Shown: positions 29,328-58,178 of the stretch, piece after piece
Position numbering within the stretch: position 1 is the stretch's first letter
Layout: each line of letters starts with the position of its first letter
Notes under the pieces: model-generated
Told to the model about the DNA's origin: nothing
Databases searched by the model: none
Seen by the model: the letters and a program-made list of their open reading frames with translations, nothing else
Translations under genes and position numbers: made by a program
DNA from: Escherichia phage vB_EcoM_JNE01
Direction: 5' to 3' (one strand)
Length of the DNA: 64,000 nt
Sequence record: OR670491

Positions 29328-29360
<33 letters not shown>

Positions 29361-29659: not shown

Positions 29660-29732
29660 GCCTTCTTAACTCAGTTGGTAGAGTAATCGCCTTGTAAGCG
29701 ATAAGTCATCCGTTCAAGTCGGATAGAGGGCA
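29660..29732 (+). tRNA. tRNA-Thr (anticodon TGT)
   Basis: Acceptor GCCTTCT/AGAGGGC; D-arm ACTC-AGTTGGTAG-AGT; anticodon arm ATCGC-CTTGTAA-GCGAT; T-arm ATCCG-TTCAAGT-CGGAT. Confidence 0.8.
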
Positions 29733-29734
29733 CA

Positions 29735-29816
<82 letters not shown>

Positions 29817-39021: not shown

Positions 39022-39069
39022 ATAACCCAGTATACTAATCTCATAACGTAATCACTAGAGGATATAAAG

Positions 39070-39968: not shown

Positions 39969-39972
39969 TAAA

Positions 39973-40416
39973 ATGTATTCAAAAAATAAAACATTGTTTA
40001 TTGTTTATATTATTATTATCATTGATGCAATTAGTAATTACCTCACACTCAATAACATTGAAACATTTATCAATCCGATATGGTTCTGTATAAATCTTGG
40101 AGCACTTGCAGTATTCTCAGCGATTGCATTACTGGGATTGATTGCAGTGTATCTGATTGGTTTGAACGAAAATGACAGAGTTGATTTTGTTAAGGAATAC
40201 GGAACGAAATCATTATCAAAATTCGTTTGGGTTCTTCCATTATGTTTGCTTATAGTGTATGATGTTCAAATGCATTTATATGAATCAGCCGTAATTTTAA
40301 CACCTATCATGCTTATATATAACGCTTTCGTTAATGAGCACAGGTTAGCCATTAAAGAACACTTCATACGAATGGCTAAGATGGGAACCACTCAATTGAA
40401 TGAACAAGAGGATTGA
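39973..40416 (+). CDS. hypothetical multi-pass membrane protein
   Basis: 147 aa; several hydrophobic segments. Confidence 0.5.
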   Translation: MYSKNKTLFIVYIIIIIDAISNYLTLNNIETFINPIWFCINLGALAVFSAIALLGLIAVYLIGLNENDRVDFVKEYGTKSLSKFVWVLPLCLLIVYDVQMHLYESAVILTPIMLIYNAFVNEHRLAIKEHFIRMAKMGTTQLNEQED

Positions 40417-41957: not shown

Positions 41958-42920
41958 TTGAAAAAGCTAGATCTAAATGCAATTGCTGATGAAGTACTGG
42001 ATGAATGTTTTGCTAGTGAAGAAGTCAACGTATTAGAGGCAATTGATGCCGTTGAAGAAGAACATGATGACCACAAGTTCGAGAAGCCTAACACTGGTAT
42101 CAGTTTGACTCGTCCTAAAGGTGTAACGAATGAAATGCTCATCCAGGAAGTACGTGATGGCATTAACGTTGAAAAGAACATTGATCTTCTGGTACGTTAC
42201 AACTACCCAATGATTGTTAGTACTGCTCGTAAATGTACATGTTTCATCCCATTTGAAGATAAGATTTCATATGGTGTTGAAGGTTTAATGCGAGCGATTC
42301 ATACATTCGATCCTACCAAGAACGTTAAGTTCATTACCTATGCAACAACAACAGTGTATATGACAATCTATAACGAAAGTGCAGACGCTAACTACCTAGT
42401 GCACTTCCCACGTTATATGAGTGTTAACAACATTTATGTGAAACGTTGTGTAGAAGCGTACCAAAAGAAATATGGTAGGTTCCCAACTCCAGAGATGGTC
42501 GCTGAAGAGACTGGTATTGAGATTCAACACGTTAAGAATTGTCTAACCTACACCAATACTTATATGGCATTGGATATGAAATTGAGTACTGATTCAGAAA
42601 GTACCTTGTCTGACATTGTTACTACAGTTGATCCTGATTACAACTTAGGTGCAGAAACTATCAGTATCCCACTGGTACAAAGTATTGCAGATATGATGCA
42701 TAATCTATCTGAAAAAGACCGTGAGTTGATTGAACGTGTACATGGTATTGGTTCAGCACAAGAACCAGAAACGCTACGAGAAATCATTGAGAGCGGTTTT
42801 GAAGATGAGAAGGGTAAAGTCATTACTGCTCGTTCTTCCTTGCACCGTAAGTACTCTGACGCAATGGAACGCCTACGTAAGATGGTGAAGTCCAGAGGTT
42901 ATGAGTTCGAAGATTTTTAA
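41958..42920 (+). CDS. sigma70-family RNA polymerase sigma factor
   Basis: Region 2: GLMRAIHTFDPTKNVKFITYATTTVYMTI...FPRYM; region 4: LSEKDRELIERVHGIG...ETLREI...ARSSLHRKYSDAMERLR; apparent TTG start after GGAG. Confidence 0.7.
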   Translation: MKKLDLNAIADEVLDECFASEEVNVLEAIDAVEEEHDDHKFEKPNTGISLTRPKGVTNEMLIQEVRDGINVEKNIDLLVRYNYPMIVSTARKCTCFIPFEDKISYGVEGLMRAIHTFDPTKNVKFITYATTTVYMTIYNESADANYLVHFPRYMSVNNIYVKRCVEAYQKKYGRFPTPEMVAEETGIEIQHVKNCLTYTNTYMALDMKLSTDSESTLSDIVTTVDPDYNLGAETISIPLVQSIADMMHNLSEKDRELIERVHGIGSAQEPETLREIIESGFEDEKGKVITARSSLHRKYSDAMERLRKMVKSRGYEFEDF

Positions 42921-43558: not shown

Positions 43559-43792
43559 ATGATTAACATTAAGGAACATCTAATGAATTCAACAATCTTC
43601 TTAGTAGCAGCTCTTTCAATGCAAAGCGGTGTACAAATCACTCCAATGAATTCCATGAATCAATGTATTTCTGTTCGTGATAGTACCTACGAACAGGTCA
43701 ATAAAAATATCTGGATGTCTATTGACAAAGAACAGATGTGGTGTTATAACAGTAATACAAAAGTTAAACTGTTTGTTGGTGAGAAAGAATAA
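43559..43792 (+). CDS. hypothetical protein
   Basis: 77-aa ORF. Confidence 0.45.
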   Translation: MINIKEHLMNSTIFLVAALSMQSGVQITPMNSMNQCISVRDSTYEQVNKNIWMSIDKEQMWCYNSNTKVKLFVGEKE

Positions 43793-43795
43793 TAG

Positions 43796-43824
43796 TTGAC
43801 ACGTAAGAAGTTCTAGAGTATAAT
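43796..43824 (+). promoter_or_regulatory. sigma70-type promoter
   Basis: TTGACA, 17-nt spacer, TATAAT. Confidence 0.55.
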
Positions 43825-43874
43825 TTCTACATTGAGTACTGAACTAAATCATTAATTAATCAAGAGGGTTTATC

Positions 43875-44060
43875 ATGCAAGTTATCGTTCTTATCGTTGG
43901 TATCGTACTGGGTGTTTATGGTCATTCCTGGATGCAGGAGAAGTTTCCTAATACTCGTCCAGACTTCTGTAGCACTACGGTGAGTTCTGAACTATCTAAA
44001 GATAGCAAAGATAGCATTGGTACTAAACTGGATAAAGTACTGAACGTAATTAACGAGTGA
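43875..44060 (+). CDS. small membrane protein
   Basis: 61 aa; hydrophobic N-terminus. Confidence 0.45.
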   Translation: MQVIVLIVGIVLGVYGHSWMQEKFPNTRPDFCSTTVSSELSKDSKDSIGTKLDKVLNVINE

Positions 44061-44429: not shown

Positions 44430-44708
44430 ATGTCTTTAACCAAAGAAGAACGTGACCTTATTGAAAAAGCAATCTGGTTTTATGCAAATGAAAGCCAGTG
44501 CAGTGATGAAGAAGCACGTGAACTGTGCAACCACCTTAGACAGAAACAAGAACTGAAAGTGTATCGTATACGTGCTGTGGATGATGGGGATCGTATTGTT
44601 CTAGCGGAAACAAAAGAAGAAGCAGAACAAATCTTCACTGATAATAACGAAAATCCACATTACATGGAAGAAGTCTGTGAAGTGAAAAAAGGTACTTATA
44701 TCGATTGA
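44430..44708 (+). CDS. hypothetical protein
   Basis: 92 aa; TTGACA-17-TATAAT promoter about 40 nt upstream. Confidence 0.5.
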   Translation: MSLTKEERDLIEKAIWFYANESQCSDEEARELCNHLRQKQELKVYRIRAVDDGDRIVLAETKEEAEQIFTDNNENPHYMEEVCEVKKGTYID

Positions 44709-44826
44709 CAGTACTGAATAATAGCAGTATAATGTTTATATCAAAGGGAATGCAGTGAAAGGAAAGACAGCATAATCGTACTCGTCACTGCGTTTCCACC
44801 CTTTTAAATTAAATGAGGAATTAATT

Positions 44827-45135
44827 ATGTTTCAAACTAACACTCAAGGTTTTGTAATCATCGATCTGAATAAAAACAGCGGTCATTGGATGAAACCTAC
44901 TGACGCATGTATGCAGTTTGATTTCTTAGGTTATAAAATCAGTGTAAGCACTGGTGGTTCAGTACTGCGTGGTGGTTGTATCGTTGAACATCTCGTCACT
45001 GATCCTGAAGGCCGCGAATACGAAATCGCAGGTTCAGTACAAGATGCTATCATGTTCGTGTGTCAGCGTGAAATGAATGGCAGTAACAGCAACGCACTGA
45101 CAAACGCATTATCACAAGAAGTGGAGGTTCGTTAA
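44827..45135 (+). CDS. hypothetical protein
   Basis: 102-aa ORF. Confidence 0.5.
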   Translation: MFQTNTQGFVIIDLNKNSGHWMKPTDACMQFDFLGYKISVSTGGSVLRGGCIVEHLVTDPEGREYEIAGSVQDAIMFVCQREMNGSNSNALTNALSQEVEVR

Positions 45136-45380
45136 TGAAATATATTGTTTTAGTAGTAATGGCGTTTTTACTGAGTGCTTGTGATGCAAGTACGAAAGAC
45201 CGAACCAGTGAATTCCTTCTCCCTACTGAGTTAAAGGATGCTGGGTGTAAGATTTACCGTATGCGTCAGGAAGGTGATGGTGCAACTTTGTACACAGTTT
45301 ACTGCCCTAATGCTAATACCAGTACATCTTTCCGTACAGGAAAGACAACCGTACATGCATCTGTCATCAATGGTGAATAA
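45135..45380 (+). CDS. small lipoprotein
   Basis: Signal peptide with lipobox LLSAC; about 60-aa mature protein with two further Cys. Confidence 0.55.
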   Translation: MKYIVLVVMAFLLSACDASTKDRTSEFLLPTELKDAGCKIYRMRQEGDGATLYTVYCPNANTSTSFRTGKTTVHASVINGE

Positions 45381-45381
45381 C

Positions 45382-45747
45382 ATGGGATTGGACACAACTA
45401 AAGCCCAAGAACTACATAAGCGAGCAATGGATGAAGAGTTTTTAGCAAACATTCGCTATAAGATGGAGAAGCTATATCGTAGTGCTGAAATCTTAGAAGA
45501 CAAAAAACCTTCCATGACTACAAAATATTTCAATATCACTAACGACATTTGTTATAGTCCAGGTGAAATTTGGATTGAGTGGGAGTCTTGGACAGGGGAT
45601 ATTCTTCGTGTGCAAGGTTATTGTGTTCAATACGCTTTCGACGGTAATTCTAAATCACTGAAGGTACTATGTACTAATACGAATGATGTAGTGGATGTCA
45701 ACTTACATTGTATTAAATGGGTTGACTTTGGAGATGTAGATGAATAA
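45382..45747 (+). CDS. hypothetical protein
   Basis: Track ORF 45238-45747 trimmed to the first ATG after the previous stop. Confidence 0.4.
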   Translation: MGLDTTKAQELHKRAMDEEFLANIRYKMEKLYRSAEILEDKKPSMTTKYFNITNDICYSPGEIWIEWESWTGDILRVQGYCVQYAFDGNSKSLKVLCTNTNDVVDVNLHCIKWVDFGDVDE

Positions 45748-46000
45748 AATTAAATTCATTGTACTTATGGTTCTCATGTGTGTTTCACTCACTGGGTGTG
45801 ATGAAGACCTTTCAGCTAAAACATTAGCTCGCTGGAACTGTAAGATGACTGGTGAGAAGTTCAAAACAGTCGAAAGTGTTTGTGTTGGTGAAGGTAGAAG
45901 CCGCTGCGACAAAATGGTTGACCATGAAGTGGAATTGTTTGTATATGATTGTCCAACAAAGGGTCGAGTACTGAGTAAAAGTGAGTTAATTTATAATTGA
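45740..46000 (+). CDS. small lipoprotein
   Basis: Signal peptide with lipobox SLTGC; Cys-rich mature part. Confidence 0.55.
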   Translation: MNKIKFIVLMVLMCVSLTGCDEDLSAKTLARWNCKMTGEKFKTVESVCVGEGRSRCDKMVDHEVELFVYDCPTKGRVLSKSELIYN

Positions 46001-46056
46001 CAGTACACCACAAAAGGGATACAATGTATCCCTACTTTAATCGAAGAGGCTAACAA

Positions 46057-46266
46057 ATGACTACTAATGAAATGCTGAAAGCAATCTGGGATAAAGGTTA
46101 TGAACTGAAAGTAACCAGTACTGAGATTCGCGTATTCAAGACTGAGTACTGTGAATATCTGGATTTAGATACTTATAACAGTATTGTCGTTGAGCAACAC
46201 AAAGGCAATGTTACTGAAAGTATTGATTCAGTACTTAAACGTTCTTTAGCTATCGTTGGTGCTTAA
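46057..46266 (+). CDS. hypothetical protein
   Basis: 69-aa ORF. Confidence 0.45.
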   Translation: MTTNEMLKAIWDKGYELKVTSTEIRVFKTEYCEYLDLDTYNSIVVEQHKGNVTESIDSVLKRSLAIVGA

Positions 46267-46373
46267 AATGAATTCAGATTTACAGAAGATGATTGGATTT
46301 GGTATTTCTGTGTTTTTTGTTATGATTTCTTTTGCAATTTTCATCCCTAAACTATTTCATTAAGAGGTGTATT

Positions 46374-46568
46374 ATGATTTCTTTATATGTTGCTGTTATG
46401 CTCACTCATGGACAAATCGACCGCACCGTAGGTAAAGGTGTTTACACTACAGCAGATGAATGTTACACTGCTACTGCTTGGCCTCAAGATGAAGGTTCAA
46501 GTAATGAATTCAAATGTCTCAAAGTTAAAGGTGACTTTGTTAATCTTAAGGTTGTTGAGGCCAAATAA
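46374..46568 (+). CDS. small secreted/membrane protein
   Basis: Track ORF trimmed to the ATG after an AAGAGG RBS. Confidence 0.4.
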   Translation: MISLYVAVMLTHGQIDRTVGKGVYTTADECYTATAWPQDEGSSNEFKCLKVKGDFVNLKVVEAK

Positions 46569-47068
46569 TGGATATAAACGATTTACTATCGATAGTTTCA
46601 AGACCATGTAAACACTCTTTTGATAGTCATTCCTTTAATTACACAGACAAGATTCAAGTAGTCACCGAGGAATGTTATGGAGTAACAACTATACAGATTT
46701 TGGATAACTATAGTAATAGTTTATGTTATATATACTTGACAAACCGCAGTGATGAACTTAAAAAAACCGAAATTGTATTATTTGGCAAACAGTGTTCAGA
46801 CACGCGTGATATTGAGATACTTTATTATCCTGGAAAATCTACACGCGAAATTGTTTATGACATGTACGCACTAGATGATAACTTTGTTATTGATTACAGT
46901 ACTGAAGAAAAGGTTTTTCAACAAAGTTTAGTACACAACTTTGTGTTGGGTGATCCTGGTATTCCAAAGATTTTTAAAATTCTCGATTCAATTACAGTGG
47001 ATTTTGAATTTCATATGTGCATACGTTCTGAATACTTGGATGATTTTGTGGAGATTTTCGGTTTATGA
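46568..47068 (+). CDS. EE-x-FFQxS-motif family protein
   Basis: 166 aa; TEEKVFQQSLVHNF. Confidence 0.55.
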   Translation: MDINDLLSIVSRPCKHSFDSHSFNYTDKIQVVTEECYGVTTIQILDNYSNSLCYIYLTNRSDELKKTEIVLFGKQCSDTRDIEILYYPGKSTREIVYDMYALDDNFVIDYSTEEKVFQQSLVHNFVLGDPGIPKIFKILDSITVDFEFHMCIRSEYLDDFVEIFGL

Positions 47069-47286
47069 AACGATTTTACATCAACTATCTGTGTGTATCC
47101 GAATTCAATAACGTAAGAGGTCACACAATCGAAAAGCAATCTATGGATGTATATGTTCGTGCTGAAAGTCCTACACATGCATTGTTTAAACTTATCAGTG
47201 AAGTCACCAAGTACAATACTCCCAAAACCCAACGCTACATTGGTGCTTTGTATGATATCAATGAAGTTCCAGGGTGTGATATATAA
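47065..47286 (+). CDS. hypothetical protein
   Basis: 73-aa ORF. Confidence 0.45.
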   Translation: MKRFYINYLCVSEFNNVRGHTIEKQSMDVYVRAESPTHALFKLISEVTKYNTPKTQRYIGALYDINEVPGCDI

Positions 47287-47354
47287 AAAGTACTTGACTT
47301 GGATTAGAAATCTATATATAATATATACATATTAATCGAAATGGAAAATAAATC

Positions 47355-48029
47355 ATGTTGGCTAATCTTCAGTACTTTGTAACTTCTCCGTGGGATGAAC
47401 GTGGTGTTGAACTGAACCACAAAGAAACAAGTTTTGATGACATTGGTGTAGGTACATACATCTCTGCAAATTACGACCGTAACCATCCATTTTGGGAAAA
47501 GTTTAAAGATAATGAAAGTAATCGTGTTATGTCATTATTTCAACTTAAACAACCAGGGATTGTAGCTGGTTATAATGAAGAAGACATGATCAATGTATTC
47601 ACTAACTATAAGGTAGTTGAAGAATTCCCGTGGATTAATAAACACAACGGCAATGCTTATAGTTCAGATGATTATCGTGAAATGGTCACAAATGATGATG
47701 CAATTACGTTACCAAGTGGACGTCCAGTTCCATCATCAACAAATTGTATGTCTTCTTATGGTACGGCTGATAATCTTCAGCAAATCCTGAAGAAGTATAA
47801 GCGTGTTCTGGATTCAGAAGACGAGTTAGTACTGTGTATTCATCCTGTGTACAAATCCGAACAACCAGAAAGTGGTGGCTGGCGTTGGCATAAGAATGGT
47901 ACATATATTGGTAACAAAAGAAGTAAACGTGGATATGAATACCTGGCTGATGAACCTGATATTGAAGTAGTAATCGGCTTTAAATTTCTTAAAGTACAGA
48001 GGAAAGACAATGCTTTATCTAATTCTTAG
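47355..48029 (+). CDS. hypothetical protein
   Basis: 224-aa ORF. Confidence 0.55.
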   Translation: MLANLQYFVTSPWDERGVELNHKETSFDDIGVGTYISANYDRNHPFWEKFKDNESNRVMSLFQLKQPGIVAGYNEEDMINVFTNYKVVEEFPWINKHNGNAYSSDDYREMVTNDDAITLPSGRPVPSSTNCMSSYGTADNLQQILKKYKRVLDSEDELVLCIHPVYKSEQPESGGWRWHKNGTYIGNKRSKRGYEYLADEPDIEVVIGFKFLKVQRKDNALSNS

Positions 48030-48252
48030 TTTTGTGGTTGCAATCGTTTTTATGTTTTACCCAACCTTCGTAGCACTGGTTGTACAGAAAAGCTACCGTA
48101 CTATTGGCATCATCATGGTACTGAATATTGCACTTGCTCTAGTGTCTATGCTTGTAGTAGTATCATCGCTGGCGTGGGTTGATATCATTACATTTTGGTT
48201 ATTTGTGTTTTCTTATTTGATGATTGTTGAAGTCAAACCTATTGACTTATAA
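48010..48252 (+). CDS. small membrane protein
   Basis: 80 aa; two hydrophobic segments. Confidence 0.45.
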   Translation: MLYLILSFVVAIVFMFYPTFVALVVQKSYRTIGIIMVLNIALALVSMLVVVSSLAWVDIITFWLFVFSYLMIVEVKPIDL

Positions 48253-48300
48253 GTTACTTCTGATATAATAACTTTACATTAACTGATATGAGGTATTAAA

Positions 48301-48633
48301 ATGTTAGCACTTATTTCTTCTATTCCGGCTATGGTACTCGTTTGGATTATTGTTTTTTATATGTTTTCATCTGCTAAAACGAAAGAAAAGATGGAAGACT
48401 TGTTCTTGTTGGATACAACTGTAGTTGAAGTATTCTTCTGGGTAGTAGTCATCGGAACTGTTGTAATGATTCTGAACTTTGTATTACCACTTGGAATCGC
48501 TCACAACATTCTGTCCCTTGTTGAATATTTTATTGCAATCATTTGGTTCATGCAATGTCTGTTTGCTGGTAAGGTTGGAATCTGGTTTACGTTGGTGAAA
48601 GAAAAGATTAGTACGCTTACTAAAACTAAGTAA
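48301..48633 (+). CDS. membrane protein
   Basis: 110 aa; three hydrophobic segments. Confidence 0.5.
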   Translation: MLALISSIPAMVLVWIIVFYMFSSAKTKEKMEDLFLLDTTVVEVFFWVVVIGTVVMILNFVLPLGIAHNILSLVEYFIAIIWFMQCLFAGKVGIWFTLVKEKISTLTKTK

Positions 48634-48705
48634 TATTCTCAAAAATGTTAAATACTTCTGTACAAAGTAATGTTCAGAAGTATTTTTACTTTTATTGAGG
48701 GTATC

Positions 48706-49068
48706 ATGAAATATGTAATAATAACTATAACTTTTTTAATTGGATTGATTTCTAGTTCAGCCAATGCAGTAGTTGGTGAAGAACTAGATTGTATGGGGAA
48801 TGATGGGATATGGCATGTACTTACAAATGACCCACAAAATGGAACTAATATTGTAGTTGACGGTGATGTTTATAGGTTCAGAAACGAAAGTACAATAGGT
48901 AACAAAAAAGTCTCGACATATAAAAATGATGCTGATATAATAGCTAACGTAATCTTGATTGTAGATCCAAAGACAAGGGATGGAGATATCTATATTGTAA
49001 TATATAGAGATTCTTCGAATAAACGCGATGAGGATATAGATAAGCTTAATCTACATTGCGAATTTTAA
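48706..49068 (+). CDS. secreted protein, paralogue of 49453
   Basis: Track ORF trimmed to the ATG after a GAGGG RBS; signal peptide; Cys near both termini. Confidence 0.5.
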   Translation: MKYVIITITFLIGLISSSANAVVGEELDCMGNDGIWHVLTNDPQNGTNIVVDGDVYRFRNESTIGNKKVSTYKNDADIIANVILIVDPKTRDGDIYIVIYRDSSNKRDEDIDKLNLHCEF

Positions 49069-49079
49069 ACGAGGTTCTT

Positions 49080-49448
49080 ATGTTAAACACGGTTCTTCAG
49101 TACATCTTAAGCATTCCATTTATTCTTAGCAGTCTTGTATCTGTAGCATCAATACTTTTTAGTATCTTTTCAGTAATGTACTGTGTATATACTAAAAAAT
49201 ATACATTCATCAATAAGGTAAACTCCTTATTTGAAACTGATAGTGTACCGTATTGTGTGTGGTCTTTTAGTGCAGCGGGAATTTTTGCAACATTCCTTCT
49301 TTACTGCCTGGATATTATTGACAGAAGTTATGTTCTAATTAGCATTGGGGTAGGATTATATTCATCGTGTTGGTACTTGATTTATGTTGTAGACTCGTGG
49401 TATACTGCATATCAGCAGTACACGATTAATAAACAATATTCCAAGTGA
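49080..49448 (+). CDS. membrane protein
   Basis: Track ORF trimmed to the ATG after a GAGG RBS; multiple hydrophobic segments. Confidence 0.45.
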   Translation: MLNTVLQYILSIPFILSSLVSVASILFSIFSVMYCVYTKKYTFINKVNSLFETDSVPYCVWSFSAAGIFATFLLYCLDIIDRSYVLISIGVGLYSSCWYLIYVVDSWYTAYQQYTINKQYSK

Positions 49449-49452
49449 GGAT

Positions 49453-49812
49453 ATGACCATGAAAGTATTTTTATTCTTTATCTGTATGATTTTTTGTGCT
49501 GTACAAGCTCATGCGGAACCACTGGCAAAGATGTTTTGTTCAGAGGGTGAAGTACAGCACATCTATCAAGGTGATTCTGATGACCACGATATCATTTACA
49601 TTGATGGATCGATTTATAACTTTGTAAAAGAACATACAGTTGGTGATGTAAGTTTTACCGAGTACGCATCGAATGTAGATAAGAATGAGTTAGCGTTTAT
49701 CCAGGTTAACTTAGAAGAAGATGCTGATGAAGTACAAGATGTTAAATTGGTTCTAATGCGTAAAGGTGCAGGTACTACAGAGTTTGGTGGCTCCTGTGTG
49801 TTTGATGCATAG
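49453..49812 (+). CDS. secreted protein, paralogue of 48706
   Basis: Signal peptide (...CAVQAHA); shared D-G-x-(V/I)-Y-x-F core and Cys pair with 48706. Confidence 0.5.
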   Translation: MTMKVFLFFICMIFCAVQAHAEPLAKMFCSEGEVQHIYQGDSDDHDIIYIDGSIYNFVKEHTVGDVSFTEYASNVDKNELAFIQVNLEEDADEVQDVKLVLMRKGAGTTEFGGSCVFDA

Positions 49813-49826
49813 TCGGGAGATAAAAT

Positions 49827-50018
49827 ATGTTGATTTATCAAGGTGATGGTATTCGTGTATTGCAGCATCCATTCCTTCAAGTCTTCGATGTACAGAAGTT
49901 TCAAGAAGGTGATGATCCAAGAACATATGGACGTAAACATGATTACTTCACAGTAAAGCAATGTACAAGTATTGAAGAAGTTCGTTCATTAGTGAAAGAA
50001 CTAGAAAATAATGGTTGA
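49827..50018 (+). CDS. hypothetical protein
   Basis: 63-aa ORF; followed by PeSL. Confidence 0.45.
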   Translation: MLIYQGDGIRVLQHPFLQVFDVQKFQEGDDPRTYGRKHDYFTVKQCTSIEEVRSLVKELENNG

Positions 50019-50043
50019 CTTCGGTCAACCTTTTTTGTATACT
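50013..50043 (+). promoter_or_regulatory. PeSL-like terminator-promoter cassette
   Basis: Hairpin GGTTGAC-TTCG-GTCAACC + T-run; TTGACT in stem, 17-nt spacer, TATACT. Confidence 0.6.
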
Positions 50044-50073
50044 TAATTCATATTAATTGATGAGGGTATTGCG

Positions 50074-50520
50074 ATGCTGGTATATCGTTTTGAATTAGGC
50101 TTTAGTTATGTAGAAGAAAACTTATATCCAGTGAGATCAATTGGACCGTTCGCACGTTACTATTCACAATACAGTACTGACAACGGGTTTGACCGTTTGC
50201 GTTTAGGAACACCACACGAATTGCAACCTGAACCAGAAAAGGATGGCATTCATTGCATCAAGCACGGTTGGGCTTTTGGCTGTGCATCAATTAAAGACCT
50301 TATTCGTTTCTTCGCTAATGACTTAGGTCGTTTGCATCGTTCCGGCTTTCAGGTTTTTGTATATGAAGTTCCTGATAATCATGTTGATGTTGGTGGTCAC
50401 CAGGTTCAGTACTACGTAGGTAGTGCTAATTTAGTACGCATCATGGGTGTACGTGAAATGAAGCAAGAATACCGCCAGATGAAAGAGGTTGAAGATGCAA
50501 AAAACGCTGTACACGTTTAA
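50074..50520 (+). CDS. hypothetical protein
   Basis: 148-aa ORF. Confidence 0.5.
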   Translation: MLVYRFELGFSYVEENLYPVRSIGPFARYYSQYSTDNGFDRLRLGTPHELQPEPEKDGIHCIKHGWAFGCASIKDLIRFFANDLGRLHRSGFQVFVYEVPDNHVDVGGHQVQYYVGSANLVRIMGVREMKQEYRQMKEVEDAKNAVHV

Positions 50521-50854
50521 GAAGTGGTACACATTCACTTTACCTGGTGACAAATACTTTGACCAACAGGATGATGAATATTACAAAAAAGAAACTCTCA
50601 AATTACTGAAGATGGCTAAACAAGCCCTTTCTGTATACAACAGTTCTTTAAACGTAGCCTATGAGCATTACCGAATCACGGCAAAGATTGATGAAGAAGA
50701 TGGTGAACTTTCATTCTTTGAATACGATATTGTATACTTTGGTTACACCGATGATGAAGACCCAATCAACGTTGATAAGATACGACTTGACCTCACCGCT
50801 ATATCTGTTATACTTAAACAACTGGCTGAGATGTGTGGCTTAATTGAAACATAA
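50495..50854 (+). CDS. hypothetical protein
   Basis: Track ORF trimmed to the second ATG, after an AGAGG RBS. Confidence 0.45.
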   Translation: MQKTLYTFKKWYTFTLPGDKYFDQQDDEYYKKETLKLLKMAKQALSVYNSSLNVAYEHYRITAKIDEEDGELSFFEYDIVYFGYTDDEDPINVDKIRLDLTAISVILKQLAEMCGLIET

Positions 50855-50866
50855 TAGAGGAACACT

Positions 50867-51133
50867 ATGAAACTTAAAATTGAATACAGTGGTTTCTGTA
50901 TGCGTAAAAATACTGAATTTGTAAACCGCACTAAAGGTTCAGAACTCTTTTTTAAAGAGATGCAAATTCCTTATGTAATTGAGACAGTTGGAGATCGTGA
51001 AGTACTGTCCTATGAAGAATACACTAAAGTAGATGTACCGTGGTATTCTGAGCACATGTATATGGACATGGCAGAACGTTACAATTGCGAATTTATTATT
51101 AAACCAAAAACTATCACAATCAAATTTAACTAA
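50867..51133 (+). CDS. hypothetical protein
   Basis: 88-aa ORF. Confidence 0.5.
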   Translation: MKLKIEYSGFCMRKNTEFVNRTKGSELFFKEMQIPYVIETVGDREVLSYEEYTKVDVPWYSEHMYMDMAERYNCEFIIKPKTITIKFN

Positions 51134-51144
51134 GGTAAAATAAA

Positions 51145-51438
51145 ATGATCAGTGCTTCAGTGAATGCCAATATTGTTTCAGATGTAAATTTAATTAAAGA
51201 ATGCACAGATAATGATACTCGTGATCTTTATATTAACAACGTCATTGAGCAATATGGAAACATGGGTGTTATGGAGTTCGTCCGCTTAAACGGTGAACTA
51301 ATCAAGAATAAGATTCGTCTTAAACTTGCGGTTCATCCAAAGGCGTGGGCATTCACAATGAAGTACGCAGAAGATATGTTAGAGCTACGCCGCAGTACTG
51401 TTTACGAACGTTTACATAATGGCACATTAGAGGGTTAA
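51145..51438 (+). CDS. hypothetical protein
   Basis: 97-aa ORF. Confidence 0.5.
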   Translation: MISASVNANIVSDVNLIKECTDNDTRDLYINNVIEQYGNMGVMEFVRLNGELIKNKIRLKLAVHPKAWAFTMKYAEDMLELRRSTVYERLHNGTLEG

Positions 51439-51439
51439 T

Positions 51440-51685
51440 ATGAAAAAGATTGCATTGGGATTGGCTTTTCTTGCATTGAGTGCTTCTTCGTTTGCAGGGC
51501 AAGCAGAATATGATCAACCACGTTCTGTGAAGTGTGTAGATTTGCGTGGGGGAATTATATCTTATGATGAACATGAAGTACGACGTGCTAAAATTGATAG
51601 TGATGGAACAACGGTAATACTGAAGGATGGAAAATTCATTCAATTCAGTCCAGCAGTTCAATGTATCACGGTTTTGCAAGAATAA
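51440..51685 (+). CDS. small secreted protein
   Basis: Signal peptide (...SASSFAGQ); two Cys in mature part. Confidence 0.5.
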   Translation: MKKIALGLAFLALSASSFAGQAEYDQPRSVKCVDLRGGIISYDEHEVRRAKIDSDGTTVILKDGKFIQFSPAVQCITVLQE

Positions 51686-51764
51686 AAGCTTTATTGATCT
51701 ATATCAATTTTCATTACCAAAATGTAAATATTAATGAGTAAAATATATTTTCATGGAGGTTTAT

Positions 51765-52001
51765 ATGGAAGTTGTTATTATAATATGTGCATTTATTTCT
51801 TTGATAGTAATGTTATCTCCAACTTTTATTGCACACAAATTGAAGAACAATAATGCTGAAGCAATAACATACGTTAACATTTGTTGTGTAATGACATATG
51901 GAATACTGTTGTTCTTTACTGAATTTACTTTTATTCCTATAGTTGTATGTTCATCAATGTTCATATGGTTATTCTTACTGTATGAATCTATTAAAAAATA
52001 A
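51765..52001 (+). CDS. small membrane protein
   Basis: Track ORF trimmed to the ATG after a GGAGG RBS. Confidence 0.45.
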   Translation: MEVVIIICAFISLIVMLSPTFIAHKLKNNNAEAITYVNICCVMTYGILLFFTEFTFIPIVVCSSMFIWLFLLYESIKK

Positions 52002-52010
52002 TCAATAACT

Positions 52011-52043
52011 GGGTTGACCGAAGTCAACCCTTTGTTGTATAGT
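52011..52043 (+). promoter_or_regulatory. PeSL-like cassette (inverted loop CGAA)
   Basis: Hairpin GGGTTGAC-CGAA-GTCAACCC; TTGACC -35 and TATAGT -10. Confidence 0.5.
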
Positions 52044-52052
52044 GAGGTTCTT

Positions 52053-52625
52053 ATGAATCGTAAAGGCCGCTTCAAAGTATCAAAGAAAAATAAGAGTTCC
52101 AAATTTAAGCCCATTGTTATATCCGTGAAAAGTAAGCCTGAATTAACTGCTCTTAGTCATAAGATTGTTTCACCTAAGATTAAAGTATCTTACATTAATT
52201 CGTTAAAATTCCAAAAGGTAAAACCACAAGACCAACTCATTTCACTTATATTTGAACGTAATGATTTTGAGATATCAGTCGATGATTATAGAGGCTATAA
52301 TGCTGGCTTCATTAATGTAACTTGTAATAAAGAACTAACTGCGTTAGAAAATTTGACATGTATAATAAATCTTGATAAAGGGGTGGTGACGTACCAATTT
52401 GTACATTTAACCAATATCAATAATGGTATGGGTGTGCAATCCAGAATAATAGTACCTACATGTGATGAGACTAGTTTAGCGAAGCTCAATGAAGAAGAAT
52501 ATTTTCAAGAAAGTATTGTAACTGAGCATTTGGATGTTATAATAGAAACCTACAAAGAATGCGTATGGGTTTTGAACGCAATCAAACCTAAATTATGTTT
52601 AATGAATATAGTTCGTGATTTGTAA
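52053..52625 (+). CDS. EE-x-FFQxS-motif family protein
   Basis: Track ORF trimmed to the ATG after a GAGG RBS; NEEEYFQESIVTEH. Confidence 0.5.
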   Translation: MNRKGRFKVSKKNKSSKFKPIVISVKSKPELTALSHKIVSPKIKVSYINSLKFQKVKPQDQLISLIFERNDFEISVDDYRGYNAGFINVTCNKELTALENLTCIINLDKGVVTYQFVHLTNINNGMGVQSRIIVPTCDETSLAKLNEEEYFQESIVTEHLDVIIETYKECVWVLNAIKPKLCLMNIVRDL

Positions 52626-52637
52626 ATTGGAGAGAAA

Positions 52638-53081
52638 ATGAGTTGGATACATGTTAATCATTCAGTACTGAACGAAATTGATATCTTTGCTTTCGTCAAC
52701 CTTAAGGATGATACTGTCCTTCGTGGACGTTTGTTCACTACACACGAAGGAGTTAAAGGTATTGCACTGATGGATACAAATGGTGCAGTATATGCTTCAC
52801 AGGAGCTACCTGCGTGGACGTATAGCAGTACTGAAGAGAATGTATTCGCAGAAGTAATGAAAGGCTTAGAGGCTCTGCCTGGTGGCGATATCCAGAACAT
52901 CGTATTCAATATTGAACGCGGTAATTACTCACCAGAACATCTAAGTGCATTAGCTATGAGAGCATTGAAGTCAGCTATAGTCACACCTAAGTGTGTGATT
53001 CTGAAGTATGTTCCTGACTTATCGTTAAGTGCACAAGATATGGAATCATTCATTTTTACATCTGAACTGAAACAATATTGA
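52638..53081 (+). CDS. hypothetical protein
   Basis: 147-aa ORF. Confidence 0.5.
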   Translation: MSWIHVNHSVLNEIDIFAFVNLKDDTVLRGRLFTTHEGVKGIALMDTNGAVYASQELPAWTYSSTEENVFAEVMKGLEALPGGDIQNIVFNIERGNYSPEHLSALAMRALKSAIVTPKCVILKYVPDLSLSAQDMESFIFTSELKQY

Positions 53082-53180
53082 ACAAATTTCAGTTAAGTGA
53101 TATAATTACAATGAGTTAATAAGAACAGAACTCATTTGTTATAAATACAAATGTAATTTATCTCTTTAAGGAGTATTGAA

Positions 53181-53564
53181 ATGGTTGATAAATGGAACAA
53201 GAAAGATCCATCACACGATGTGGATATTTCAGGTCTTGACAATGAGCACAAGCATAAGTATCTAGATTCACTAGGTCTACTAAAGCCTGACCAAAGTCTA
53301 TCTCATGACCGCCCTTCACGTGAAAAGGCATTCAGCCTTGAATCCTTGGGTCATGAATTGAATCGTGTATTTGAAGATCACCCAATCTATGTTCGTGATA
53401 TTATTGAAAAGCTTAAAGTAACTCCTAAAGAGCACTTTAAAGCAACAGTACATGCGGCGTTCCGCTCTTTGCACGAAGCACTAAAGAAAACTCATAACCT
53501 ACGTAAGATTCATGATGATATCGTGAAAGCTATCGAAGGTGAGAAACATAAGTTCAAGAAATAA
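53181..53564 (+). CDS. hypothetical basic protein with LxSLGLL motif
   Basis: 127 aa; KYLDSLGLLKP shared with ORF 54152. Confidence 0.5.
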   Translation: MVDKWNKKDPSHDVDISGLDNEHKHKYLDSLGLLKPDQSLSHDRPSREKAFSLESLGHELNRVFEDHPIYVRDIIEKLKVTPKEHFKATVHAAFRSLHEALKKTHNLRKIHDDIVKAIEGEKHKFKK

Positions 53565-53607
53565 ACACTAAGGTTGACTTCGGTCAGCATTTTTTATTGA
53601 TTTAGTA

Positions 53608-53636
53608 TTGACACTATTAAAAGAAATGAATATAAT
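53608..53636 (+). promoter_or_regulatory. sigma70-type promoter
   Basis: TTGACA, 17-nt spacer, TATAAT; just after a PeSL-like hairpin at 53572-53595. Confidence 0.5.
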
Positions 53637-53678
53637 ATCAATCAAGACGTAGATAAACCTAACTTAATGAGGATGTGT

Positions 53679-53972
53679 ATGAAAATTATTATTGCGTTGT
53701 TAGTATGTATATCATTTCAAGTATTATCTGCCCCACAATTAGTATGTACAATTACCCGAACTGATGGACAGACTATGACATTCAATACGAATGAATTGTT
53801 TGGAAGATCAAGTACTGAAACGGAAACCACATATCAATATCACCGACTTGATGTTGGTAATAATGTATCTACGCAAACAGACATGACCATCGATAAAATC
53901 ACACTTAAGGGTCGAATTATTGCTGAGAGAAGTGGTGTTCCAGCTTTATCGGCAACAGTAGACTGCAACTAA
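53679..53972 (+). CDS. small secreted protein
   Basis: Track ORF trimmed to the ATG after a GAGGA RBS; signal peptide; Cys pair. Confidence 0.5.
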   Translation: MKIIIALLVCISFQVLSAPQLVCTITRTDGQTMTFNTNELFGRSSTETETTYQYHRLDVGNNVSTQTDMTIDKITLKGRIIAERSGVPALSATVDCN

Positions 53973-54151
53973 GGAACAGGTATGTATTTATATATCGCAA
54001 TTTCAAGTATTGTCTTTGTTGTTATCGTTACTGGATGGTTTGGGTATCTAATGTTAAGTACAAAATAGGTTGACTTCGGTCAGCCTTTTCTTTATACTAT
54101 AAATATAGTCATAGAGAATAAACCAATATGAAATCTATGGAGAGAAATCAA

Positions 54152-55972
54152 ATGCCAGGTCAATTTACTGATAAAAATGGTGGTAATATGGCTGGTCACT
54201 CTGACCGTTGGAGTGATGCTAACCGCCGTAAGAATAGTTATCAAGCAGGACAAGGTTCACGTGGTTCACGTAATCAAGGGACAGGTTTAGCTGGTAAGGC
54301 AAACGCAGAAGCAGGTGAAGTTAAGAGTACTGAGAACATGACTGAGCTAGAAAAGCTACGTTATGTTAACTCATTAGGTCTTCTTAACGCAACACAGAAA
54401 CAACGCCTTGCTGATATGGAACGTGCTGAGAAAGAACAAGCAGTTCCTAAAGAAGAACCAAAACCAGAAGCTCCTAAAGCAGCTAACCCTGTTAAAGAGT
54501 TATCTGATAACTTAGGTAAGATCTTTGCTAACAAACCACAGTTGATTCAGGGTATTGTCAAAGCACTACAGGCAGTTCCTAAAGAAGAACTCAAAGGTAA
54601 AGCACAAGCTGTACTTGATGCAATGAAAGGTAATAAGAGCACTGAACCTACTGAAGTATTCAGTACTATCATGCGTGCACTGGAAGGTAAACAGAAATCC
54701 TTACCACAAAAGACCGATCAAAAACCAAGCAAACCTAGTGGAAGAATGTCTGAAGACGAATTCCGTGAAGTAAATGATTACTTAGGTGCTAAGTTTGTGA
54801 ACGATATTATCAATCAAGCTAAACAATATACAGACTTAGAGAAAGCACTGTACATTATTGATATGGCAATTGAAAATGTAGATGATGTAAATGATTCTCG
54901 TGCAGTTCGTATGTCAATGTCAAGTGCTGCTGATGACCTCACATCAATGGGATTAACGCTCAAGGATGAAGACGAAAATAATGATATTGAGTTTGATGAA
55001 CACTCACACGATGATGTTAATCTGGAAAGTATTCTTAAAACTTTTGATAGTATTGGCAAAGCAGACCGTGCTAATGCACAGCAAGTCAAGAATGTACTAG
55101 CTAAACTTGAAAACCGTTTAGAAGGTAAAGACGATAAGATTCAATTAGTACATGATGCTATCAAATCAGCATTAGATTCTTATGCACCTGGTGAGAAGTC
55201 TCGATTCATCACTGCTATGAATGCTGCATTCAATACTATGAAAAAGTATGAAGCTGAACATGGTGAGAAAGTATCAAAAGATGGTTACTTAGTTCGTGAT
55301 GATGAAGAAGGGGCAGTTGACCAGAAAGATGCTGAAACATCTCATGATGATTTACCTGATACTGTTGATATGGATGGTTACATTCATCGTCCTGAAATGG
55401 GAGAGTTTGGTTCTGACAAAGAAGGATTTGAACATGCAATGGCAGTGTACAAAGCTCTCGTGAACAATCCAGATTATGCCAACCGATTTGTAGATGAGTT
55501 TGATAGTGCATGGAACAACTACAAAGACAAAGGTTATGACTTCCCTGCTGAGGCAGCATTCTTTGAACTTGGTAAACTTTTAGCTAAACATGGAATTGAT
55601 GTAGGTTCTAAAGATGGTACTGATACTGATGGCATGGAAGCAGAATTGGCTAAAGATCGTGAAATGAACGACAACTCCATTCATGAACTCCAGAAGCTAA
55701 TGATGTGGATATCCGATATTGGTAAAAAAGCTGGTGCTGATAATAAGAGTATCAACAAAAACATTAGTTGGATTAAAAGTAATGTTGGTAAAAATGCTCG
55801 TAAACTACAAAAAGCATGGACTGATTTAGTAAATGGTGCTGATGATGTTGACATTGAATCACCAGAAGCATACGAATATGCATTAACTACTCTTGATAAT
55901 TCCTTTAAAGATTACGATAACGGTAACGTAACTCATTGGGAAAAGGATATCATGAACAAATACGGTAAATGA
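54152..55972 (+). CDS. large hypothetical protein (about 606 aa), charged and low-complexity
   Basis: Track ORF trimmed to the ATG after a GGAGAG RBS; optimal codons; flanked by PeSL cassettes; shares YVNSLGLL motif with ORF 53181. Confidence 0.55.
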   Translation: MPGQFTDKNGGNMAGHSDRWSDANRRKNSYQAGQGSRGSRNQGTGLAGKANAEAGEVKSTENMTELEKLRYVNSLGLLNATQKQRLADMERAEKEQAVPKEEPKPEAPKAANPVKELSDNLGKIFANKPQLIQGIVKALQAVPKEELKGKAQAVLDAMKGNKSTEPTEVFSTIMRALEGKQKSLPQKTDQKPSKPSGRMSEDEFREVNDYLGAKFVNDIINQAKQYTDLEKALYIIDMAIENVDDVNDSRAVRMSMSSAADDLTSMGLTLKDEDENNDIEFDEHSHDDVNLESILKTFDSIGKADRANAQQVKNVLAKLENRLEGKDDKIQLVHDAIKSALDSYAPGEKSRFITAMNAAFNTMKKYEAEHGEKVSKDGYLVRDDEEGAVDQKDAETSHDDLPDTVDMDGYIHRPEMGEFGSDKEGFEHAMAVYKALVNNPDYANRFVDEFDSAWNNYKDKGYDFPAEAAFFELGKLLAKHGIDVGSKDGTDTDGMEAELAKDREMNDNSIHELQKLMMWISDIGKKAGADNKSINKNISWIKSNVGKNARKLQKAWTDLVNGADDVDIESPEAYEYALTTLDNSFKDYDNGNVTHWEKDIMNKYGK

Positions 55973-55981
55973 TAAAGAAAA

Positions 55982-56014
55982 GGGTTGACTTCGGTCAGCC
56001 CTTTTTGCTATAAT
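55982..56014 (+). promoter_or_regulatory. PeSL-like terminator-promoter cassette
   Basis: GGGTTGAC-TTCG-GTCAGCCC + TTTTT; TTGACT in stem; TGCTATAAT extended -10. Confidence 0.65.
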
Positions 56015-56042
56015 CATTTCATCAACTCAAGAGGAAACAAAA

Positions 56043-56450
56043 ATGAAAAAGACTATTTTAAGCGTAATCGGTGCAGTACTGTTCATGGTAACTTCAGTTG
56101 CTTCTGCTGCAACAGTAGAAGAGATCTTTAATAACAACCTACCTACTCAAGAAGAGATGGGTATTAAGAAGTGTGACCTTTCCCGTTACATCATTTTGGG
56201 ATCACAACTGGTTCCTGATGGTAAGGTTAAAAATCGTGTTAATCTGGTTGAAGATGGTAACACCTTCAGTTTTGAATATGGCGTAGCACCAACCTCCGGT
56301 TCTATGGATAACGTTGATGAAAACACTGGTTCCACCTGGAGTACTAACAAAGGTGATGTGTTCCATCGTATGCGTGAAGGTGGTAAACTGAAATATGTTT
56401 ACGAAAGCCCATTCATCAAACGCGTGTATATTATGACCAACTGCCATTGA
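56043..56450 (+). CDS. secreted protein
   Basis: Signal peptide (...TSVASAAT); Cys near both ends of the mature part. Confidence 0.55.
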   Translation: MKKTILSVIGAVLFMVTSVASAATVEEIFNNNLPTQEEMGIKKCDLSRYIILGSQLVPDGKVKNRVNLVEDGNTFSFEYGVAPTSGSMDNVDENTGSTWSTNKGDVFHRMREGGKLKYVYESPFIKRVYIMTNCH

Positions 56451-56501
56451 CAGATACATTTCAGTACTGTATAATACCTACATCAACCAGAGGATATGAC
56501 A

Positions 56502-56795: not shown

Positions 56796-57128
56796 ATGAA
56801 TTTTGAATTGATTAATAAAATATCATTCTGTTTCATGTGTTTAATACAATTGTATTTGACACTTGGATATATACTTAGATTTTTTAAGTACAAAAGTATA
56901 TATAAACGCTTTTATGATGATGCACCTATCTTCGATTTACTGTTCATCGGTAATGCGTTTTCTATAGGAGAAATTCTGGTTGATGGCATTGACCCTGCTC
57001 AACCACAGTTAGTTAGTATCTTACTTGGACTAATTGTATCATGTGTTGGTATATTCCCATTGGTGTGGTCATTCTTTCACTTCGTTGGGTGGCTTGATAA
57101 AATACGTAATAATTTACCGGAGCGATAA
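56796..57128 (+). CDS. small membrane protein, paralogue family of three
   Basis: Two TM segments; C-terminal ...RNNLPER. Confidence 0.5.
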   Translation: MNFELINKISFCFMCLIQLYLTLGYILRFFKYKSIYKRFYDDAPIFDLLFIGNAFSIGEILVDGIDPAQPQLVSILLGLIVSCVGIFPLVWSFFHFVGWLDKIRNNLPER

Positions 57129-57463
57129 TGCAAACAGTAAACACATTAAGTTTTATCATTTGTACTGTGTCTGTATTTTATATGGTACTGTGTTATGTTT
57201 TGTGGTTTTTCAAATTTGAAAGCATTTTAGAACGTGTTTATAGGCTGGACTTAGAAGATGAGATTGGTATAACAGTACTCACTGTTCTAGGTTTTGTCTG
57301 TGGTGCGTCTATCCTGTTGGATATGTACATGAAACTACCCATTGATGCCCCACATCCTCCAGTAATCACCAGTTCAATTGTAATTGGTATTGTAGGTTTC
57401 CAGGGATTGATTAGTCTGTTTTCCTCAATAGCTACATATAGAGATAAGCTACCAAAGAGGTAA
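57128..57463 (+). CDS. small membrane protein, paralogue
   Basis: Same architecture; C-terminal ...RDKLPKR. Confidence 0.5.
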   Translation: MQTVNTLSFIICTVSVFYMVLCYVLWFFKFESILERVYRLDLEDEIGITVLTVLGFVCGASILLDMYMKLPIDAPHPPVITSSIVIGIVGFQGLISLFSSIATYRDKLPKR

Positions 57464-57465
57464 AA

Positions 57466-57819
57466 ATGTCGGATAAGTACTACTTTACGGGTAAGAAATG
57501 TGAACCATACGTTTTGGATTACAAGGAGCAGGAACAACCTAAACCGAAAAAGAAAGCGAAGAAGGAAGTAGTGAAGAAACAAAAACCACTGGTTAAAGGA
57601 TTGAAACTTAAACCTTTCCAAAAACTGGACTTTGACACTTACAGAAAGATTTATTTGGATTTGACGTGTAACATTAGCTTTGATGTTAATGCGATGAACA
57701 GGAAGTATAACCTGAAGGGTAGTTTCAATTTTTATTATGACTTAAAGAATGATGATCTTGAATCTTACCATGAGTGGTATAACGTTATGAATAACCACGT
57801 CGATGACAATAACCCATAG
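57466..57819 (+). CDS. hypothetical basic protein
   Basis: 117 aa; Lys-rich segment. Confidence 0.5.
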   Translation: MSDKYYFTGKKCEPYVLDYKEQEQPKPKKKAKKEVVKKQKPLVKGLKLKPFQKLDFDTYRKIYLDLTCNISFDVNAMNRKYNLKGSFNFYYDLKNDDLESYHEWYNVMNNHVDDNNP

Positions 57820-57827: not shown

Positions 57828-58178
57828 ATGATTGAAATTATCGGAACGATCAGTTTTGTGTCATGTGTATTGTTCTGCACTTACATGATAATTGGACACA
57901 TTTTGTATTTCTTCAATTACATTACTGTGTTTAAAAAATTCTACTTCGAAAAGAGTGGATTTTTGTTTTACATTTGTGATTTTTTCACATGGGTGTCAAT
58001 GGGTGCAGTTATAATGGATATTATGTTTAGTGAAGATGTTTCTAAGGTAGGGTTCGGAATGACGCTTCTACCATTTGCACTATTCGTTACCCTTGTAGCT
58101 TTGTTCTTGATAGTGTTATCAAGTAATTTTATATCAGAGAAATTAAACAAGGCTAGAGAAAACTTCCCAATGCGATAA
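57828..58178 (+). CDS. small membrane protein, paralogue
   Basis: Same architecture as 56796 and 57128; C-terminal ...RENFPMR. Confidence 0.5.
   Translation: MIEIIGTISFVSCVLFCTYMIIGHILYFFNYITVFKKFYFEKSGFLFYICDFFTWVSMGAVIMDIMFSEDVSKVGFGMTLLPFALFVTLVALFLIVLSSNFISEKLNKARENFPMR

Follow-up and report, generated by a model that had tools for sequence, protein, structure and literature searches.

Results

The sequence analysed in this study, referred to as the window, is a stretch of 64,000 nucleotides (nt) of Escherichia phage vB_EcoM_JNE01 (sequence record OR670491). The subject is its interval 45135-56450, in which an earlier sequence-only reading had noticed a cluster of small secreted proteins, lipoproteins and membrane proteins. 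Nearly all genes of the window are carried on the + strand, on which the gene calls were made, and about 27 genes fall in the interval; they are named here by their first position (Table 1). In a megablast search with positions 45000-56500, 94% of the query aligned with Escherichia phage Turkey5 at 97% identity, while 121Q, PBECO4, fEgEco12, vB_Ec-M-J and other Asteriusvirus jumbo phages matched at about 83% over about one third of it. Based on these matches, the window was assigned to an Asteriusvirus, a myovirus and jumbo coliphage of roughly 350 kb resembling 121Q and PBECO4. The syntenic stretches of fEgEco12, vB_Ec-M-J, Turkey5, 121Q, A4, UE-S1 and Klebsiella phage RaK2 were compared with it. 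The gene order of the region is kept throughout Asteriusvirus, and the window is a variable accessory region in which many genes have no match in fEgEco12. The 45135 gene is overlapped by an out-of-frame open reading frame (ORF), and the call adopted agrees with the Turkey5 annotation. The secreted protein previously placed at 49453 was assigned to the ATG at 49459, which has a better Shine-Dalgarno spacing and also agrees with Turkey5.

Table 1. Features of the envelope-protein region (a slash marks the predicted cleavage site; aa, amino acids; TM, transmembrane segment)
Feature	Position	Strand	Details
Composite terminator-promoter elements	42930, 50013, 52011, 54067, 55984, 62148, 63039		each about 35 nt
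Perfect sigma-70 promoter	44705..44733	+	TTGACA-N17-TATAAT; heads 44827, 45135, 45382 and 45740
Lipoprotein	45135..45380	+	81 aa; lipobox LLSA/C, Asp at +2; mature Cys23 and Cys42 invariant in family
Lipoprotein	45740..46000	+	86 aa; lipobox SLTG/C, then D-E-D; four more Cys; phrog_31263
Unit P45997	46057 to 47065	+	promoter/terminator map
Single-TM peptide	46268..46363	+	31 aa; weakest call of the set
Unit P47294	47355, 48010	+	promoter/terminator map
Membrane protein	48010..48252	+	80 aa, 2 TM (TM scoring)
11/12 sigma-70-like promoter P48242	48242..48269	+	unit 48301, 48706, 49080, 49459, 49827; ends T50013
Membrane protein	48301..48633	+	110 aa, 3 TM; phrog_31401; first gene of the TM3-barrel-TM3-barrel block
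Secreted protein	48706..49068	+	120 aa; signal peptide ...SSANA/V; mature Cys8 and Cys97
Membrane protein	49080..49448	+	122 aa, 3 TM; phrog_31707; between the two barrel genes
Secreted protein	49459..49812	+	117 aa; signal peptide ...QAHA/E; mature Cys8 and Cys94; paralogue of 48706
Composite element	50013..50043	+	UUCG hairpin GGTTGACTTCGGTCAACC, T-run, TATACT; hairpin arm is the TTGACT -35
Unit P50015	50074 through 51440 and 51765	+	ends T52011; promoter/terminator map
Secreted protein	51440..51685	+	81 aa; signal peptide ...SSFA/G; mature Cys13 and Cys56
Membrane protein	51765..52001	+	78 aa, 3 TM; vB_Ec-M-J homologue labelled 'immunity to superinfection'
Unit P52014	52053, 52638	+	promoter/terminator map
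Unit P53078	53181	+	ends T53573; promoter/terminator map
Unit P53608	53679	+	ends T54067; promoter/terminator map
Moron-like cassette	53608..54086	+	perfect 12/12 promoter 53608-53636, gene 53679-53972, terminator hairpin 54067-54086
Unit P54070	54152	+	promoter/terminator map
Composite terminator-promoter and monocistronic secreted gene	55984..56450	+	element 55984-56014; gene 56043-56450, 135 aa
Unit P55985	56043	+	promoter/terminator map
Three paralogous 3-TM membrane proteins	56796-57128, 57128-57463, 57828-58178	+	phrog_19285; just beyond the interval
Non-membrane gene	57466-57819	+	between the second and third 3-TM paralogues

Every N-terminus was scored for a signal peptide, a lipobox and TM segments by a rule-based heuristic. 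The lipoboxes of 45135 (MKYIVLVVMAFLLSA/C) and 45740 (...CVSLTG/C) were recognized, and 48706, 49459, 51440, 53679 and 56043 were scored as Sec-type secreted proteins, in line with the earlier count of two lipoproteins and at least five signal-peptide proteins. The paired cysteines reported before were also found, with exactly two Cys in the mature part of each secreted protein, the first 6-22 residues from the mature N-terminus and the second 1-6 residues from the C-terminus. All the secreted proteins (5/5) have just two Cys of which the last lies no more than 6 residues from the C-terminus, a layout seen in 2/55 size-matched non-exported proteins of the window. The several small membrane proteins were identified as 46268, 48010, 48301, 49080 and 51765. 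Using a strict signal-peptide rule, 6 of the 27 genes in the interval were positive versus 2 of 126 in the rest of the window (Fisher p = 4e-4), which bears out the envelope-targeted load; this rule misses 53679, and one of the two outside matches is a LemA-type membrane anchor.

The export calls are supported by the heuristic, by conservation of the signals in orthologues and by N-terminal helices detached from the folded part in both AlphaFold models (45135 and 48706). In the orthologue sets of all exported families the signal peptide sequence drifts with its charged/hydrophobic/small-residue layout kept, and the Cys positions are invariant; for the secreted proteins the Cys are kept in orthologues down to 30% identity. 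The envelope proteins share on average 53% identity with fEgEco12 versus 65% for the neighbouring cytoplasmic proteins, a modest difference since the whole window is variable (p = 0.09 for the exported proteins alone, p = 0.0085 with the membrane proteins added).

Comparison of the mature regions by hhalign related only 48706 and 49459 (93%; blastp 2e-6), so that their previously noted paralogy holds, while every other pair stayed below 3% probability. By this measure the exported proteins of the cluster fall into six or more unrelated families, two of lipoproteins and four of Sec-type proteins, beside which there are several families of membrane proteins, and one hidden superfamily of secreted proteins sharing the N-to-C Cys staple was rejected at the sequence level. 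A sixth candidate for secretion, 46374, was flagged by a loose rule and then rejected; with a short N-terminus that lacks charge and is strongly conserved as far as RaK2, the protein is probably cytoplasmic. Pfam, NCBIfam, PADLOC and PDB sequence searches gave nothing informative for any exported protein, and for 45740, 51440, 53679 and 56043 PHROGs gave no informative match either.

The 45135 lipoprotein matches phrog_902 (function unknown) at 1e-12 and, weakly over residues 1-50, phrog_1119 'Cor' (E = 0.0018). Matches of the phrog_902 lipoprotein were obtained by tblastn in 293 phage genomes, including Asteriusvirus, many Felixounavirus, Vequintavirinae-like phages (about 150 kb), Acinetobacter T4-likes, and Erwinia and Yersinia jumbo phages, and an exhaustive HMMER search with the family returned 273 clusters at the 50% level. 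In an alignment of 80 sequences the lipobox Cys and two more Cys are invariant, with the motif LP.EL.DCKIY...VVRCPNS.T.T...GK. According to the alignment and the AlphaFold model, the two invariant Cys lie at about mature 21-23 and 39-42 of about 66 residues and flank an internal hairpin. No Pfam or NCBIfam model covers the family, which the sources name 'hypothetical' or 'Lipoprotein'. Judged from these searches, phrog_902 is a large, sharply defined and unnamed family spread across virulent myoviruses. Its homologue lies between DNA polymerase and ligase in Felixounavirus bumzen and among small early ORFs in Certrevirus PBES02. In the bumzen record (MN850635) the homologue found by tblastn at 3501-3719 carries no lipoprotein annotation and is overlapped by the annotated coding sequence bumzen_45 (3640-3942); the gene was probably missed or mis-framed there.

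In GenBank the vB_Ec-M-J homologue of 45135 bears the label 'Cor superinfection exclusion protein', and the fEgEco12 homologue is called 'lytic conversion lipoprotein'. Neither identity was supported. When the 80-sequence profile was aligned by hhalign with authentic T1 Cor, 20 columns aligned, all of them in the signal peptide, and just 7/80 members of the family matched phrog_1119 (Cor). A PDB profile search touched T5 Llp at residues 1-19 only (E = 6.4), and the comparison of structures with known exclusion proteins, which had been proposed with the original observation, gave no fold match to Cor or Llp, nor similarity to Llp (PDB 8a60 chain B). Cor/Llp-type factors are located at the receptor-binding-protein or central tail-fibre locus (PMC11990801), and the 45135 gene lies in an early accessory unit, not at that locus. 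The idea that the mature domain recurs as a repeated module in giant proteins (P0010, matched in 13 stretches, and P0017) was rejected as a sum of weak matches, because P0010 is a coiled-coil protein of repetitive sequence with no Cys and P0017 comes from a mosquito.

The 45740 family is restricted to Asteriusvirus, and its further Cys are kept in orthologues of 35-40% identity. Compared with fEgEco12 g528 the identity is 36% with all five Cys in register, although this slot gave no tblastn match at 1e-3. According to the Lol-avoidance rule of E. coli, Asp at +2 of a lipoprotein leads to retention in the inner membrane. Both lipoproteins of the window carry it (C-D-A-S in 45135 and C-D-E-D in 45740), so that the periplasmic face of the inner membrane is the probable location of both. 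The +2 residue varies in the 45135 family, with Asp in 23/77. Llp acts at the inner leaflet of the outer membrane (10.1101/2022.06.28.497910).

The 48706/49459 family is restricted to Asteriusvirus and RaK2-like phages, and a scan of IMG/VR viral contigs with 48706 gave no matches. An AlphaFold model of 48706 was built on a 21-sequence alignment covering both paralogues. The mean predicted local distance difference test (pLDDT) score was 81, with a core of about 88-94, and the model consists of the detached N-terminal helix followed by eight beta-strands, with invariant Cys29 on the first strand and Cys118 on the last. The family gave no sequence-profile match to any solved structure, and the viral structure library returned only the family itself. 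The modelled fold, an eight-stranded antiparallel beta-barrel, resembles the lysozyme inhibitors of the PliC/ACP type, and several of the proteins similar in fold are periplasmic inhibitors of lysozymes or of autolysins. Such matches are generic; unrelated barrels often reach similar scores. The inhibitory motifs of MliC/PliC are SxSGAxY in loop b4-b5 and YxxxTKG in strand b6 (PMC5507604). Unlike those inhibitors, the 48706 family has SxSGAxY in 0/21 and YxxxTKG in 1/21 members. The Neisseria ACP protein, an eight-stranded barrel with a disulfide between the first and last strands, is without the MliC/PliC motifs and still inhibits lysozyme (PMC5507604). As modelled, the 48706 family shares the fold class of these inhibitors, and the placing of its two Cys would fit a comparable disulfide, but it is not a member of their families. 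The operon order 3-TM, barrel, 3-TM, barrel (48301-49812) is kept as far as Klebsiella phage RaK2, which belongs to a different genus and infects a different host. Duplication of a membrane-protein-plus-barrel module was not supported, since 48301 and 49080 are not detectable paralogues.

Exact sigma-70 promoters (TTGACA-N16-18-TATAAT) occur 16 times in the window, all on the + strand, versus 0.13 expected. Examples outside the interval lie at 198, 1411, 6395, 8691, 15749, 33723, 37116, 43796, 44356 and 61099. Because it is driven by consensus sigma-70 promoters, the interval is probably transcribed early, and the whole window looks like an early region dependent on host RNA polymerase. The sequence-only reading had placed each envelope gene on its own transcription unit. 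This was not the case: the promoter/terminator map gives about ten units, only 53679 and 56043 among these genes look monocistronic, and both lipoproteins share a four-gene unit behind P44705. The description of the region as early and non-structural is probably right in its first half, as judged from the promoters, and is weakened in its second, since 53181-53564 and 54152-55972 match 'virion structural protein' PHROGs 16530 and 20398. These two products have a homologous N-terminal domain in common. The protein encoded at 54152-55972 (606 aa) has a high content of the charged residues K, E and D and differs from fEgEco12 and Turkey5 by large indels; it could be located inside the virion or be ejected from it.

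A hairpin with a UUCG loop, GTTGACTTCGGTCA(A/G)C, is present in 8 copies in the window versus 0.04 expected. In the composite elements of about 35 nt, the hairpin GGGTTGACTTCGGTCA(A/G)CCC is followed by a T-run and then by TATAAT or TATACT. The 5' arm of the hairpin is itself a TTGACT -35 hexamer, and the -10 hexamer comes 17-18 nt later. Since the hairpin arm supplies the -35 and a -10 follows, one such element would both stop transcription of the unit before it and start it anew. At 53573 the hairpin seems to be purely a terminator, and the promoter at 53608 is separate from it.

The remaining secreted proteins differ in distribution. Compared with fEgEco12 g547, 51440 has about 30% identity with the Cys spacing kept, although the slot gave no tblastn match at 1e-3. 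The product of 53679 is a secreted protein of 97 aa with mature Cys6 and Cys79. It is present only in the fEgEco12/vB_Ec-M-J subgroup and absent from Turkey5, 121Q, A4 and UE-S1. Because it has its own perfect promoter and terminators on both sides (53573 and 54067), it was regarded as a moron-like cassette. Like lambdoid morons, it is a self-contained promoter-gene-terminator that is present or absent between near-identical genomes and has an exported product; it differs in belonging to a virulent jumbo phage with an early lytic promoter and no repressed prophage. The 56043 protein (signal peptide ...VASA/A, mature Cys22 and Cys112) has discrete alleles among Asteriusviruses, with 97, 65, 56 and 42% identity. 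Turkey5 alone gave a homologue of the 46268 peptide, whose slot is occupied by a 48-aa TM protein in the relatives. The identity of 51765 with T4 Imm was rejected, as Pfam Imm_superinfect (E<=1) had no match among 46268, 48010, 48301, 49080, 51765, 56796, 57128, 57828 and fEgEco12 g553.

The envelope-rich block extends somewhat past 45135-56450, as judged from N-terminus scoring of the flanks. Downstream lie the three 3-TM paralogues (Table 1). Upstream, 38051 encodes a protein of 169 aa with a classic signal peptide and 2 Cys (phrog_36332), 38557 has an N-terminal TM segment, and 39726 and 39973 encode TM proteins (38051-40416); closer to the interval (43583-44060), 43583 has a possible signal peptide and 2 Cys, and 43875 an N-terminal TM segment. 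In fEgEco12 the block holds extra small envelope genes that are not in the window (10856-11534 and 13199-13811 of the fEgEco12 stretch compared). Of these, g552 encodes a TM protein of 37 aa and g553 a multi-TM protein of 87 aa, which in vB_Ec-M-J bears the label 'immunity to superinfection'; the product of g556 (83 aa) has a signal-peptide-like N-terminus and is labelled 'lytic conversion lipoprotein' despite having no lipobox Cys. As relatives carry g552, g553 and g556, which are absent from the window, the comparison points to ongoing gain and loss of envelope genes.

Discussion

Early exported accessory proteins of virulent phages are already known. The families described here have no characterised member and no relation to those examples; one, phrog_902, has a very wide distribution. 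Like T5 Llp and T1/phi80 Cor, superinfection-exclusion lipoproteins that act on FhuA, 45135 and 45740 are small lipoproteins of a virulent phage. The common format, in part predicted here, is a lipobox, about 60-70 mature residues and one intramolecular disulfide. The lipobox of Cor is shared by 45135 and 45740, whereas 45135 has no homology to it in the mature domain. The termini-tying disulfide of Llp is found in neither lipoprotein, as the Cys of 45135 flank an internal hairpin and 45740 has four Cys; its N-to-C 'termini-constraining' Cys layout is common to the five secreted proteins. These five (48706, 49459, 51440, 53679 and 56043) have the same predicted format as T4 Spackle (gp61.3), being early, small and provided with a cleaved export signal and one disulfide. 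Spackle, which has 75 aa and a disulfide between Cys29 and Cys81, is made early and acts in the periplasm as an inhibitor of the lysozyme of incoming tails (PMC7677548). However, Spackle is an alpha-helical bundle and the 48706 model, the one of these families modelled here, is all-beta; searches of PHROGs, Pfam and PDB sequences linked none of the proteins to Spackle. The likeness to T4 Imm consists in small polytopic inner-membrane proteins among early genes; in addition to the missing Imm_superinfect matches, none of the nine small membrane proteins had an informative PHROG match.

We propose tentatively, at somewhat less than an even chance, that the cluster is an envelope-modification set which protects the infected cell from further phage attack by superinfection exclusion and protection from lysis from without. 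In this proposal, the early accessory block would load the host envelope soon after infection with small proteins, namely two lipoproteins, five soluble periplasmic proteins each with one N-to-C disulfide, presumably formed by the Dsb system, and several small inner-membrane proteins. They would alter and protect the envelope of the infected cell through the long latent period of a jumbo phage. Entry or cell-wall penetration by later phages may be blocked by binding envelope or incoming-phage components, as for T4 Spackle/Imm and T5 Llp, and the foremost candidates for such a binder or inhibitor in the periplasm are the barrels of 48706 and 49459. Of the roles suggested by the sequence-only reading, superinfection exclusion, or more widely envelope protection, remains the likeliest candidate, and Spackle and Llp are documented precedents of the format. 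Membership of the Cor, Llp, Imm or Spackle families was not supported for any of the proteins.

The proteins might instead defend the cell against envelope attack from sources other than phages, or neutralise defence or stress systems located in the host envelope. Binders of periplasmic toxins (type VI secretion system amidases, colicins), protease or autolysin inhibitors and blockers of membrane-acting abortive-infection effectors would be examples, and the cell would be kept intact through the long latent period. The spread of phrog_902 over phages of unrelated hosts and receptors favours such a conserved host target. On the other hand, no homology to a known immunity or anti-defence protein was found and PADLOC finds nothing; the fold matches are generic and the targets are without direct evidence, so that we consider this explanation rather unlikely. 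Regulation of the phage's own lysis seems improbable, whether by spanin components, by factors of lysis inhibition or by periplasmic sensors that resemble antiholins, such as T4 RI. Lysis systems are usually built from small proteins that are secreted, lipid-anchored or located in the membrane, and two phrog_902 members weakly match an Rz-like spanin PHROG; but these are 2/80 members, and the equally weak Cor/Llp matches of the family rest on the signal peptide. A two-component o-spanin was rejected for 45135, as its neighbours 44827 and 45382 (the next gene) are without a TM segment, and no holin, endolysin or i-spanin partner lies beside either lipoprotein. The early-type promoters and the Asp at +2, which speaks against an outer-membrane o-spanin, further disfavour a lysis role, and seven or more unrelated exported proteins are far beyond the needs of a lysis cassette.

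A chance gathering of fast-evolving ORFan genes, with hydrophobic N-termini that mimic export signals, would fit the fact that all families are uncharacterised, the variability of the window with its many genes lacking a fEgEco12 match, and the heuristic nature of the signal-peptide caller. This is most improbable in view of the significant enrichment, the lipobox Cys and Cys pairs that are invariant across 80 family members and all orthologue sets, the drift of the signal regions within a constant layout, as is seen in real signal peptides, and the N-terminal helices that both models set apart from the folded domain.

Within the proposal of envelope protection, a more specific joint version can be formulated, which we regard as unlikely in its full form. 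The TM3-barrel-TM3-barrel operon (48301-49812) of Asteriusvirus and RaK2-like phages would encode a new class of all-beta periplasmic inhibitors of peptidoglycan hydrolases (incoming tail lysozymes), functional analogues of Spackle with inner-membrane partners, and the phrog_902 lipoprotein would be a new and very widespread inner-membrane-anchored factor of exclusion or envelope takeover in virulent myoviruses that has been mis-annotated as Cor/Llp.

Jumbo phages are in development for therapy and the function of most of their early genes is not known; a literature search found no transcriptome or functional study of the present genes in Asteriusvirus or RaK2-like phages. The block offers a compact candidate set for envelope alteration and phage competition. 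Three labels are spreading in GenBank for these genes, namely 'immunity to superinfection', 'lytic conversion lipoprotein' and 'Cor superinfection exclusion protein'; they are unsupported here and unfit for inference. Since phrog_902 occurs in well-studied phages (Felix O1-like phages and BASEL members), its function is easily testable. Should an exclusion role be shown for the barrels or for the lipoprotein, new structural classes would be added to a field with few characterised proteins.

Other features of the window

Just upstream of the cluster, at 41958-42920, lies a gene for a sigma-70-family (RpoS-like) phage sigma factor that is 87% identical to its fEgEco12 homologue. It has the same position in 121Q, A4 and RaK2, and the terminator-promoter element at 42930 follows it. 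Farther upstream, eight tRNA genes (Leu, Gly, two Ser, two Met and two Thr) are located at 22282-29813, interspersed with short ORFs that have no fEgEco12 match and with a minus-strand ORF of 566 aa at 25440-27137.

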